From the UHGV virus genome UHGV-0304565: a stretch of 36,690 nucleotides of DNA. One strand, given 5' to 3'. Numbering within the stretch: position 1 is the first letter of the stretch; the number at the start of each line of letters is the position of its first letter. The DNA is from a virus. The notes below the pieces were generated by a model. The model had not been told where the DNA came from. It saw nothing but the letters and a program-made list of their open reading frames with translations, and ran no database searches. A program made the position numbers and the translations under genes. Below, one piece after another: positions 5,309 through 35,994 of the stretch.

Positions 5309-5343
5309 CTGAGAAGAGGGCCAGAAACGGCCCTTTCTCTATA

Positions 5344-5475
5344 GCCACCAGCTGCCGCAGGGAAATTTTCAGAAACGGCGAGGAACGTATTCATGAGCCG
5401 ACGGGGAACGGCCAGGATTTTTTCGGGAAACGGCTGCATTCGCCTTTATATAGAAAAAACATCGGGAAGCTGGTG
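5344..5475. repeat. Iteron-like array B (GGGAAACGGC-type repeats) flanked by inverted Chi-like octamers
   Basis: Repeat copies at 5359, 5370, 5381, 5402, 5424, 5463 (11/22-bp phasing); CCACCAGC at 5344-5351 and GCTGGTGG at 5468-5475. Confidence 0.55.
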
Positions 5476-5845
5476 GAATCCAACCAGCGGTTGTCGGACA
5501 GGTGAGCGGGGAAAATTATGATGACTTTCGTCGCCTGAGACATCCAGATTTCTTTCGTAGCGTAATCACATACGTGATTAAGTGGTGTGATTATGTGAAA
5601 AATCACGCGCACATAATACGCGAGCGGATACGGAACAAAACAAAATGCCGATCCGCGCCGACAATTAAACGCGGATCACATAGCAAGAATAAAAGCCAAT
5701 GATTAACCATACACCATAACGCAATATAACGCGATTTAAGCGCGTTAATGCGCTAAGTAATGGGTATATACTGGTAAGGATATAAAAGCGCGTCTGTGGC
5801 GTTATTTTGGCGCTTATTTTATGTTGTTGGAGTGAGTTAAAGACA

Positions 5846-5873
5846 ATAAAAAACGCGCCAATGATGGCGCGTT
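5846..5873 (-). terminator. Intrinsic terminator (minus strand), first of a tandem pair
   Basis: Stem aacgcgcca / tggcgcgtt with loop atga; A-run on the plus strand 5846-5851 gives a U-run on the minus transcript. Confidence 0.6.
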
Positions 5874-5893
5874 ATGGTGGAAGTATTGGAAAC

Positions 5894-5918
5894 GAAAAAA
5901 GCGCCCATAGTGGGCGCT
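5894..5918 (-). terminator. Intrinsic terminator (minus strand, possibly bidirectional)
   Basis: Stem agcgccca / tgggcgct (5900-5918), loop tag, plus-strand A6 before and tttta shortly after; the same 19-mer recurs at 6396-6414. Confidence 0.6.
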
Positions 5919-5923
5919 CGATT

Positions 5924-6154
5924 TTATTTATGTAAACTGATTTCAAATCCCATTTCTACAAACGCTTTTAGCATTAAAAATATATCAGCGTCATTCACGT
6001 CTGCTTTTTTCCGCTCCTGGTCGCTCAATAAGTCAATTTTGCGCGTCGTTTCATCTATAAGCTCGACTGCGCGCCCAGCGTAACCAGCGATCCCAGCGAT
6101 GCGATTAACATAATATTCATTATGGACGTTAACGCCAGCGATAAGAACAAACAT
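5924..6154 (-). CDS. Hypothetical protein (76 aa)
   Basis: SD aaggag upstream on the minus strand; last gene before the tandem terminators. Confidence 0.55.
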   Translation of the reverse strand: MFVLIAGVNVHNEYYVNRIAGIAGYAGRAVELIDETTRKIDLLSDQERKKADVNDADIFLMLKAFVEMGFEISLHK

Positions 6155-6174
6155 GATTAAGCTCCTTAAAAAAA

Positions 6175-6378
6175 TTAAACAGAATTTTGAAGTTTTCCGA
6201 TTAATGCGCTTAAACGTAAATATTCACGTTTACGCTTACAATCTCGTTTACTGTTAAGCAAATCAGAAAACGTAAAATTTAATTGGTCGCGTTGCGCGAT
6301 CAAATCATCGATTAATTCCAGTTTATAAGCGCGATACTTTGCGCGATATTCCGCGCGGATCTTGTCATAGCTGACCAT
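6175..6378 (-). CDS. Hypothetical protein (67 aa)
   Basis: ORF track 6175..6423; internal ATG at 6378 preferred because the first 15 codons span the 19-bp hairpin and an SD aggag precedes the second ATG. Confidence 0.5.
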   Translation of the reverse strand: MVSYDKIRAEYRAKYRAYKLELIDDLIAQRDQLNFTFSDLLNSKRDCKRKREYLRLSALIGKLQNSV

Positions 6379-6426
6379 TTTTAAAGCTCCTTTAAAGCGC
6401 CCATAGTGGGCGCTTGATTCCATTAA

Positions 6427-7077
6427 TTACGCTTTGAAAGCATCAGCTAAATAATTGTAGAAATCATTTTTAATGAAGCGATATTGCTGAGTACCAGCTT
6501 TCGCGCTCCCAGCTCCTTTGACTTTTTCAACAAGTCCGAGACGTTCGCAAAGATTGATCAACTGGTTGGCTTGAGTATAGCCAGCGTCCAATTTAATCTC
6601 GCACGCTTTTTTGGCTTCATTCATTAAATCGAAAACAGCGCCATTCGTGAACGTGTCGATCTCGTCGTTAATCATATCGATTAAAGCGAATACACGAGAT
6701 CCAGACATATCAGCGACGGAATAAACACACTTTCCAGCTTTAATGGATTTAACCAGATAAACCAGTTTTTCCAGTGAATAACTATTAGTCATAGCATCAC
6801 GGAAAAATACTTCTGGCGCTTGTTTGCTTGCTTTAATTGCATAGTAGAAAACAGAGCATAATTTTTCGTCTTCAACAGCGTTTACAACGTTGTTGATGAA
6901 GTAAGCAAGTTTAGTGGTTGCAGCTTGCATATTTGCTTTGTCTGCTTTAGTGTGCGTACCATTTTTATAATGTTCGTTATATGTTTGAGTTGCCAGATCT
7001 GCTTTTTCGCGCAGCTCGTCGGATACAATGGCAGCAGCTTCAATGATGGATTTTTTAGAAATGATAATGTTAGCCAT
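6427..7077 (-). CDS. Hypothetical protein (216 aa) with a helix-turn-helix-like C-terminal segment
   Basis: SD aagga 8 nt upstream; C-terminal YTQANQLINLCERLGLVEKVKG looks like a DNA-binding helix pair (pattern judgement only). Confidence 0.55.
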   Translation of the reverse strand: MANIIISKKSIIEAAAIVSDELREKADLATQTYNEHYKNGTHTKADKANMQAATTKLAYFINNVVNAVEDEKLCSVFYYAIKASKQAPEVFFRDAMTNSYSLEKLVYLVKSIKAGKCVYSVADMSGSRVFALIDMINDEIDTFTNGAVFDLMNEAKKACEIKLDAGYTQANQLINLCERLGLVEKVKGAGSAKAGTQQYRFIKNDFYNYLADAFKA

Positions 7078-7374
7078 GATTTTATTCCTTAGTATAAATA
7101 TTAAAATTTAACTCAAGAAAGAAAGTGTTTTGCACTCGTTCCTGATGCGTTCAATTATCGATACGCGAAAAAAGATTGCAAGTGTTTTTTTAAGTTTTTT
7201 TGCAGGTATGAAAGTCCTAGAAATAAAAGCTAGATCGTCGAAGGTGTTCCCTAAATAAATAATAAATTCCGGCTTTTGACCTTATATATTTATACGGGGG
7301 AGAATTGAATGAGTGTTAAACGAATGGCATGTAAAATAATAACCGGACTTAGCCGGTTATTACCCTTATAGAAA

Positions 7375-7896
7375 TTAAAACGGAAGGATTCGTTCAACCC
7401 AATCGAAGAAAATAAGTATTTTTCTACCGTCTTCCAACTTAAGTGTGACTAGACAGGCGTCAACGCCATCTGACGTTCCCTCAATTTCGCGACCGTCTGC
7501 CATGTAGACCCTTATAGATTTGCCGTTTTGGTAAGCCTGACGACATATCTTAAAAAAGTCACGACGTGATGGCTGATTAACCATCTGTTCATTGTTTAGC
7601 GTTAGTCGACCTGTGAATGAAGTGTCAACCTCTTCTATGCCCGACTCAATTGTGCTAATGCGCTCAAGAGGGAGCCTTATACGATTTGTGTTGCTAAGCG
7701 GATCTGGTGTGAGGTTCAGCTTATTTCTTGCGCTCAATAGCCCGTAGACATACATGCAAAACACTTGGCCGTCTTCGAGAGTGACTCTTACAGGAAATTT
7801 TGCACTCCGCCAGAAGAGCAAGGTGCGCTCAGCATGTTCGTAGTCTCGCGGCCAGACTTCAGCCGGTATGCCGTAGGTGATGTCCAATGTTCTCAT
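7375..7896 (-). CDS. Hypothetical protein (173 aa)
   Basis: Start overlaps the stop of the upstream gene (ATGA); hairpin aataaccgg/ccggttatt downstream at 7338-7365. Confidence 0.55.
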   Translation of the reverse strand: MRTLDITYGIPAEVWPRDYEHAERTLLFWRSAKFPVRVTLEDGQVFCMYVYGLLSARNKLNLTPDPLSNTNRIRLPLERISTIESGIEEVDTSFTGRLTLNNEQMVNQPSRRDFFKICRQAYQNGKSIRVYMADGREIEGTSDGVDACLVTLKLEDGRKILIFFDWVERILPF

Positions 7897-19520: not shown

Positions 19521-19548
19521 AGGGTGGGCTATACGCCCACCCTTTTTG
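19521..19548 (+). terminator. Intrinsic terminator after the major capsid gene
   Basis: Stem agggtgggc / gcccaccct, loop tatac, T5 run. Confidence 0.75.
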
Positions 19549-35928: not shown

Positions 35929-35994
35929 ATAGGTAGGTACTAACTTAATGGTGGGCATGGAACGCCCACCATATCTAGGAGCAAAGGATAAATG
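35929..35994 (+). promoter_or_regulatory. Late regulatory module: ATAGGTAGGTACTAACTTAAT motif, GC hairpin (35950-35970), SD aggag, ATG
   Basis: Same architecture as 19498-19563 (motif, GGTGGGC/GCCCACC hairpin, TAGGAGCAA SD). Confidence 0.45.

Follow-up and report, generated by a model that had tools for sequence, protein, structure and literature searches.

A palindromic hairpin conserved at the boundaries of a small-gene cassette array in SSU5-like phage-plasmids

Why would a phage keep two exact copies of one palindrome within a single operon, one where transcription seems to end and one immediately ahead of a gene? The question is raised by UHGV-0304565, a virus genome of 36,690 nucleotides (nt; the whole stretch is called the window here), in which the 19-mer AGCGCCCATAGTGGGCGCT occurs at 5900-5918 and again at 6396-6414. 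We call the palindromic hairpin H and these copies H1 and H2. Judged by its sequence, the window is an SSU5-like phage-plasmid, a type common in clinical Enterobacteriaceae. With 96.6% identity over the region, Escherichia phage PhiR41_1 (108 kb) is the closest complete genome; further matches are to CMS-2020a, Cyrano, Salmonella phage SSU5 and Klebsiella SSU5-like phage-plasmids. A 641-bp region has matches in 791 PLSDB plasmids, including Yersinia pestis pMT1 and Salmonella Typhi pHCM2. We found no paper describing this hairpin. On balance, the comparison of these sequences favours H as a conserved intrinsic-terminator hairpin reiterated at cassette boundaries, whose terminal copy would terminate transcription, whose internal copies would be leaky and whose copies would serve as the breakpoints of cassette turnover.

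The hairpin at its two sites in the window

Both copies lie among three adjoining genes, all on the minus strand, encoding proteins of 216, 67 and 76 amino acids (aa): p216 (6427-7077), cassette gene A (6175-6378) and cassette gene B (5924-6154). A preliminary description of this DNA had reported the 19-mer at these two positions and argued that its reuse was not chance. Both copies are indeed exact, no third exists in the window even with up to three mismatches, and the chance expectation from dinucleotide shuffles is 0.01 matches; with the conservation in relatives described below, the argument against chance holds. Matches on the minus strand are the same two palindromes read in reverse. 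The identity between the copies extends over 21 nt (AA plus the 19-mer), followed by a C/T mismatch and then GATT. In H a stem of 8 bp, AGCGCCCA/TGGGCGCT, encloses a loop of 3 nt, and RNA folding forms this hairpin on the minus transcript at both sites.

H1 (5900-5918, minus strand) comes after the 76-aa gene, and UUUUUUCGUUUCC follows it on the minus transcript. Its GC-rich stem of 8-9 bp and its 6-U run are those of an intrinsic terminator, the terminator scan calls it as such, and it folds with a free energy of -15.9 kcal/mol (z -4.4). It is terminator-like on the plus strand as well, with the tail CGATTTTATTT. The U-run and conserved tail occupy 5888-5899 on the minus strand, TTTTTTCGTTTC in transcript sense, and H with TTTTTTCGTTTC is kept across the right-flank clusters defined below. 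About 48 nt downstream of H1, scan and fold both identify a second tandem terminator (5852-5873, minus strand), consisting of AACGCGCCA-loop-TGGCGCGTT and a U-run, and the pair folds at -31.6 kcal/mol (z -5.8). H1 thus looks like a true terminator, as had been proposed. It had been placed second of the tandem pair; transcription here runs from right to left, and H1 is the first.

H2 (6396-6414, minus strand) begins 13 nt past the p216 stop codon and is followed by UUUAAAGGAG, a shortened U-run and the Shine-Dalgarno sequence (SD) of the 67-aa gene. On the minus transcript the sequence after it, UUUAAAGGAGC, has 3 U and carries the SD for the ATG at 6378; that SD begins 5 nt 3' of H2 and stays unpaired in the fold. 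The preliminary description had given this copy no U-run and placed it just 5' of the SD of the 6175-6378 gene; the lack of a full U-run and the position are both supported. H2 lacks the U-run of an intrinsic terminator and was not called by the scan on either strand. With UUUAAAGGAGCUUUAAAAAUG after it, H2 is a stem-loop that precedes the SD and start codon of a small gene, and the internal copies of relatives have the same arrangement.

A scan for promoters found no promoter-like site within or adjoining H1 or H2, the nearest on the minus strand running from 7181 to 7154. In Rfam 15 neither the window region nor the pMT1 locus had a match that reached the gathering threshold, the best scores being 16-27 bits against the 38-70 needed; matches to Ysr224, ncS025 and Alpha_RBS were rejected as weak and at chance level.

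Cassette states and breakpoints across the family

The locus was followed through about 200 loci (given L numbers below), gathered by an exact-pattern scan of IMG/VR and two p216 protein searches; a search of genome contigs with p216 contributed only five of them. Exact 17-mer matches in IMG/VR that lacked p216 were either contig fragments of the same family or lay in unrelated GC-rich contexts and were discarded as chance (L010, L024, L025, L040, L062, L101, L106 and L107). In all 84 relatives ascertained through p216 and not through the hairpin, H lies 14-24 nt past p216. These have p216 identities of 62-100% and come from Escherichia, Klebsiella, Salmonella, Enterobacter, Kluyvera, Buttiauxella and Y. 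pestis pMT1. Related phage genomes carry H in one or two places each. The preliminary description had suggested a search for further copies, whose absence would count against a specific element. None was found beyond the two in the window, and PhiR41_1 has exactly two in 108 kb with up to three substitutions permitted. This absence is uninformative as a refutation, because H is specific to one locus and is conserved there across the whole phage-plasmid family.

In transcript sense (the minus strand of the window) the family layout is p216, then H, then n units of SD, small open reading frame (ORF) and H, then a T-run tail (UUUUUUCGUUUC or TTTTTTCGTTTC) and the second terminator, with n being 0, 1 or 2. 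The repeat unit is H with a short T-run and an SD, and each cassette adds one hairpin, giving n+1 hairpins. Array states were tallied among 93 distinct versions. With n = 0 the array is simply p216-H-TTTTTT (L034, L171, L194). With n = 1 the spacing from hairpin to hairpin is 247 for A (67 aa), 270-274 for B (76 aa) and 270 or 307 for B', a cassette 45-50% identical to B; pMT1 and pHCM2, checked directly, are in the n = 1 B' state. Three hairpins in the order B'-H-B make up the n = 2 state (L035, L086, L143). Empty tandem units of H and T-run, 44-48 nt apart, also occur (L065, L031, L037, L205), as do fused cassettes with no middle hairpin, A-B in the window and A-B' elsewhere. The hairpins thus flank the 76-aa gene alone in Cyrano, the 67-aa gene alone in SSU5 and both genes in the window. 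The second terminator of the window occupies the slot that a further H copy fills in divergent relatives. Throughout, no more than 3-5 U remain between an internal copy and the SD, with tails of UUUUAAGG, UAGUUUUAAGG or UUAUUC.

The cassette genes are real genes, since A is under purifying selection in comparison with SSU5 (dN/dS 0.08) and B in comparison with phage p4727 (dN/dS 0.33). Searches with tblastn for the 67-aa and 76-aa proteins gave matches confined to SSU5-like phages. A possible third cassette family, in a clade with 62% p216 identity, was rejected when its translation proved to be a distant homologue of the 67-aa protein.

We clustered the flanks of the array (250 nt to the left, 220 nt to the right) at 94% identity. 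Identical pairs of flank clusters enclose different cassettes: one left-right combination (L7 with R17) has spacings of 307 and 247, another (L5 with R11) has 271, 496 and 270+271. Left-right hybrids occur as well, one example joining an SSU5-type left flank to an E. coli-type cassette and right flank. The cleanest pair is L053 and L074, with left flanks 90% and right flanks 98% identical and an unrelated segment between the hairpins (52% in a forced global alignment); the identity ends 1 nt inside each hairpin. In the hybrid L020/L160 the junction lies inside TTTTAAGGA, adjoining H. Cassettes have thus been gained, lost and replaced at boundaries formed by the hairpins and the T-run and SD beside them, a pattern that the preliminary description had missed.

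Insertion sequences have entered the locus too. In an Enterobacter hormaechei plasmid (NZ_CP132001.1, L207), the IS4-like element ISAeme15 lies inside the terminal hairpin (about 527-543 and 1968-1984 on the plus strand of the locus), with a 13-bp duplication, GCCCACTATGGGC; the same plasmid has an IS1 in or adjoining the p216 position.

These observations suggest the following picture. H would close the leftward p216 operon where it converges with a long rightward gene block. The last H, which keeps its full U-run, would terminate transcription and be backed by the second terminator 48 nt on. Each inserted cassette would part a hairpin from the full T-run, and polymerase would then mostly read through internal copies such as that at 6396-6414, which could be leaky attenuators at best; read-through seems likely because only 3-5 U precede the SD. 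The internal copies could also provide stable 3' or 5' structure that protects or stabilises the ends of the flanking mRNA segments. An attenuator or stabiliser role is plausible for H2 because it has no full U-run and lies 5 nt from an SD. Expression of the cassettes would hinge on read-through from p216. Finally, recombination or template switching at the identical hairpins that flank a cassette would delete, add or replace it, which would explain why otherwise near-identical genomes differ in their cassettes. The layout of the arrays, the breakpoints at the hairpins and the extreme conservation described below are observed; termination at H1, partial read-through at H2 and this recombination mechanism are what we infer from the sequences.

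The array bears on two other explanations of the repeat. One, in line with the processing site suggested in the preliminary description, is that H is purely an RNA-level processing or stability element and that its position at cassette boundaries is incidental. It would shield p216 mRNA from 3' exonucleases, or cassette mRNA after cleavage by RNase E, and so set differential expression within the operon; intercistronic repetitive extragenic palindromic (REP) hairpins, for example that of malE-malF, offer an analogy. A stable hairpin does form in both contexts, the internal copy leaves the nearby SD unpaired, and the orientation bias of the loop, described below, favours a strand-specific function. 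However, this explanation accounts neither for the n+1 rule and the empty tandem units nor for unrelated cassettes that start and end within 1 nt of the hairpin; a stabiliser requires a stable stem rather than an exact sequence, and no Rfam family matches. We therefore think it improbable.

The other, which we rate as very unlikely, is that a dedicated recombinase, site-specific or acting on single strands as in the integron attC or REP/RAYT systems, targets H and moves the cassettes. Promoterless ORFs each followed by the same hairpin, hairpins numbering one more than the cassettes, and precise boundaries are what such a system would produce, and an integrase is encoded elsewhere in the genome of this family. 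H, however, is a perfect 19-bp palindrome with neither extrahelical bases nor GTTRRRY-type core sites. It has just two or three copies at a single locus, with no recombinase gene adjoining the array, and its cassette families are endemic to that locus. The hybrid junctions also fall in the adjacent SD microhomology and show no single fixed crossover point.

Sequence constraint and candidate factors

The conservation of H is extreme. Of 179 copies in distinct sequences, 177 keep the 7-bp stem core exactly, while the bases just outside the stem are not conserved, the T-run after the last copy excepted. The hairpin is exact even in relatives whose p216 proteins are only 48-62% identical, although the clades at 48-53% were found through the hairpin itself, an ascertainment bias that counts against our interpretation. 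Synonymous divergence (dS) in p216 reaches 0.99 when the window is compared with SSU5 and exceeds 1.9 for the deeper clades, and third-position identity is 0.40-0.62. The neutral survival of a 17-mer, about 3e-4 per copy in the closest comparison (0.62^17), is very unlikely given these saturated synonymous sites, and sequence-level constraint on H is supported. The hairpins of the clade with 62% p216 identity enclose a gene for a 67-aa protein that is only a distant A homologue, roughly 30% identical by eye; yet the protein length and the 230-nt segment between hairpins are the same, and both flanking hairpins are exact. The H-A-H arrangement must be old, and the internal copy is constrained too.

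These comparisons contradict the simplest view of the repeat, that it is a functionless neutral scar of a recent local duplication. The two copies do lie 496 bp apart in one operon, and tandem duplications of the 44-48-nt unit occur. Yet both copies are exact across lineages with dS of at least 1 whose flanks have diverged, and H-A-H is older than the split of the clades with 62% p216 identity, which leaves this view scarcely credible. Homogenisation by recombination alone is also an unlikely cause of the conservation, because the conversion tracts would need to be confined to the palindrome. Some conversion between copies is suggested by two genomes, L205 (Klebsiella pneumoniae pMB7868_2, about 2006-2067) and L152, in each of which one rare loop variant (TGA/TCA, mutually flipped) is common to all copies.

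The loop varies in a different way. Nearly all copies, 369 of 372, have a loop of 3 nt. In transcript sense the loop is CTA 265 times and the flipped TAG 39 times, and rarer loops also come as flipped pairs (TTA/TAA, TTG/CAA, TCA/TGA). The flipped loops are minority alleles in many clusters, with CTA the major form in nearly every clade. The recurrence of flips shows that in DNA the palindrome folds out as a hairpin or cruciform, and the persistence of CTA speaks for an importance of orientation and so for a strand-specific function. The second terminator, not itself a copy of H, was compared as a control that might have evolved freely, but it is well conserved in clades with 73-100% identity, and its loop flips among relatives too (TCAT/ATGA, TTGT/ACAA, TTGA/TCAA). 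Loop inversion is thus a general mutational process at these perfect palindromes, and the conservation of the second terminator makes a weaker case for a factor specific to H.

Several further points weigh against reading H as a reiterated terminator and turnover breakpoint. Cassettes could be swapped by ordinary homologous recombination in the conserved flanks, so the breakpoints at the hairpins may mark original insertion points rather than present-day recombination; moreover, 17-19 bp is short for RecA-type recombination. The A-B junction of the window has no hairpin, and the n+1 rule is therefore not absolute. The exactness of the stem over saturated divergence, with no compensatory swap between G-C and C-G, also exceeds what a generic terminator needs and may point to a trans-acting factor that our explanation leaves out.

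If there is such a factor, H could be a sequence-specific protein site, recognised either as a double-stranded DNA palindrome bound by a p216 dimer or as an RNA hairpin bound by a phage protein. In the DNA version the half-sites AGCGCCCA, with a 3-bp spacer and centres 11 bp apart, would be bound by the predicted C-terminal winged helix of p216, perhaps to form a roadblock or insulator. In the RNA version a FljA-like post-transcriptional repressor would act on the hairpin beside the SD and control translation of the cassette. The invariant arms and the spacer, variable in sequence and almost constant in length, fit such a site, and palindromic half-sites at fixed spacing are what the operator of a winged-helix dimer would need. 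The p216 gene and H co-occur at 84 of 84 loci, and the putative recognition helix of p216 keeps Y167, T168, Q169, N171, Q172 and L173 even at 48% identity. A FljA-family protein (PF03614, E 1e-68) is encoded nearby, at 7375-7896.

Much of the same evidence is awkward for a protein site. The promoter scan shows none at either copy of H, and H-like half-sites are no commoner than chance, whether near the promoter of p216 or in the rest of the genome. For a DNA-bound dimer the orientation of the central triplet should be neutral, yet CTA predominates in nearly every clade, which points to a role in RNA or single strands. Loops of 4 nt and a stem shorter by 1 bp (AGCGCCA-GAAA-TGGCGCT) are tolerated at homologous positions, and, with the second terminator also well conserved, strong conservation may be a property of the junction terminators in general. 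The literature on FljA gave no usable information on binding sites, and the FljA idea is speculative. Taken together, a protein site seems doubtful but worth keeping in mind. With marginally less confidence still, we suggest that the hairpin might be a dedicated recognition element, in RNA or single-stranded DNA and in transcript orientation, for a phage-plasmid protein, with p216 and the FljA-like protein as candidates; the module would gate expression and set the insertion point of a promoterless cassette array. If this were true it would be an undescribed module whose conservation spans the phage-plasmids of E. coli and Klebsiella as well as Y. pestis pMT1 and S. Typhi pHCM2.

The locus is a compact and well-delimited case of the shuffling of small accessory genes in phages, with the n = 0, 1 and 2, fused and empty states all present in nature. 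It makes two questions testable: whether terminator hairpins act as points of recombination or template switching, and whether a frozen hairpin is read by a specific factor. It also draws attention to two small protein families, of 67 and 76 aa, that are under purifying selection and whose expression would rely on read-through of a hairpin.

Neighbouring features and known systems

In PhiR41_1 the locus lies where a long rightward gene block converges with the leftward block that holds p216. The p216 gene (minus strand, phrog_1513) is always directly upstream of the first hairpin. Structure prediction gives its product an N-terminal helical domain and a C-terminal winged-helix-like domain; profile searches of p216 against Pfam and PDB gave no informative match, and a fold search against BFVD gave none that was significant. 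A promoter-like site at 7154-7181 on the minus strand (TTGCAA-16-GATAAT, a consensus match only), about 75 nt upstream of the p216 start, probably begins the p216-A-B transcription unit.

Gene A belongs to phrog_6145. An 82-aa ORF from 6423 through H2 was rejected as a spurious extension of it, since relatives annotate a coding sequence of 204 nt; read directly, the corresponding upstream ATG in SSU5 meets a stop. The 67-aa protein is labelled 'MIT family metal ion transporter CorA' in SSU5 (JQ965645; L003:3123-3326) and in phrog_6145. The label looks like a propagated mis-annotation, because the protein has 67 residues, is highly charged and helical, and has no significant Pfam match. Gene B belongs to phrog_1585. 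The A/B junction (6155-6174, minus strand), compared with the B'-H-B arrays of L035, L086 and L143 and with the H-B arrangement of Cyrano, retains the T-run and SD of the repeat unit, TTTTTTTAAGGAGCTTAATC, and has no hairpin. A simple slipped-strand deletion between TTTAA repeats was considered for the loss of the middle hairpin; it does not exactly reproduce the junction in the window.

The FljA-family protein (173 aa, minus strand, phrog_1444) is encoded two genes upstream. It has weak LSM/Hfq-like matches in its C-terminal part, and its gene has its own terminator hairpin at 7340-7359. On the other side of the array, 5309-5851 is a convergent non-coding gap of about 540 bp with hairpins at 5606-5622, 5646-5678 and 5727-5747 and with GCGC and AT-rich repeats; it is well conserved, at 98% between pHCM2-like and SSU5-like right flanks.

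Other palindromes were noticed in passing. In PhiR41_1 a second stem, AGGCGTC/GACGCCT, is used three times after three genes (L203:47544-47561; L204:1143-1161 and 2282-2301, all outside the window), with loops of 4, 5 and 6 nt and a T-run after each copy. Phages of this family may reuse terminator stems as a general rule. Within the window, 19523-19541 and 35950-35970 have in common the 7-bp stem GGTGGGC/GCCCACC, one copy followed by a T-run (CTTTTTG) and the other by the SD-like ATATCTAGGAGC. This pair echoes the pattern of H, with one terminator copy and one copy ahead of an SD. In a different virus, L015:2140-2225 and L091:520-605 (an unrelated IMG/VR contig) both have CTGCCCATAGTGGGCAG, a TATAAT-like box and GCGCCCATAGTGGGCGC, then an SD and start codon. 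These two palindromes, with the common core CCCATAGTGGG around a -10-like element, may be an operator pair.

How does H compare with systems that are already known? H1 resembles intrinsic terminators, including tandem and bidirectional ones. Just past a stop codon it combines a GC-rich stem of 8 bp with a loop of 3 nt and a run of 6 U; it lies at a convergent junction, with a T-rich tail on the other strand and a second terminator behind it. H departs from them in that the internal copy has no U-run and that the stem is frozen over saturated divergence, which is unexpected for an ordinary terminator.

REPs are imperfect palindromes of about 35 bp, with hundreds of chromosomal copies in enterobacteria, and can stabilise upstream mRNA. 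H is like REPs, and like the bacterial interspersed mosaic elements (BIMEs), in being an extragenic GC-rich palindrome within an operon, with the potential to stabilise mRNA and a possible tandem arrangement. It differs in being a perfect 19-bp palindrome with two or three copies at this phage-plasmid locus only, and lacks the high-copy dispersal that defines them.

The morons of lambdoid phages, as Hendrix and Juhala and colleagues are said to have described them in 2000, are reportedly genes with their own promoter and factor-independent terminator. The cassettes are similarly small accessory genes between resident genes, end in a terminator hairpin, and by their presence or absence separate close relatives. 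In contrast to morons, they have no promoter of their own in our scan and would depend on read-through from p216, and all share one hairpin and are stacked behind a single gene.

An attC site measures 57-141 bp and is imperfectly palindromic; it contains R''/L''/L'/R' boxes (GTTRRRY core) as well as extrahelical bases, and IntI is encoded nearby. H has no box structure and no extrahelical bases, there is no GTTRRRY in its flanks and no integrase in the neighbourhood, and the cassettes are not shared with other loci. The likeness is that of promoterless ORFs, each followed by a hairpin site, in an array of variable length past a fixed point, of which there are phage examples (PMC9892861).

The closest analogue is the PeSL (promoter-early stem-loop) of T4-type phages. 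PeSLs have a conserved intergenic stem-loop and SD, flank small genes of unknown function, and carry a strong sigma-70 promoter; the stem-loop is a terminator or attenuator, and insertion, deletion and replacement breakpoints fall at the motifs (Arbiol et al. 2010, PMC2839356; Comeau et al. 2014, PMC4122927). There are about 50 per genome, in hyperplastic regions, and mini-circles have been shown (PMC2839356; PMC4122927). In both systems a stem-loop is followed by the SD and start of a small gene, as at H2, and the breakpoints between relatives lie at the motifs. The H element is nevertheless not a PeSL. No sigma-70 promoter was detected within or adjoining its copies, and where PeSLs are dispersed and have stem-loops that vary, H has two or three copies at one locus and is one exact 17-19-mer throughout the family.

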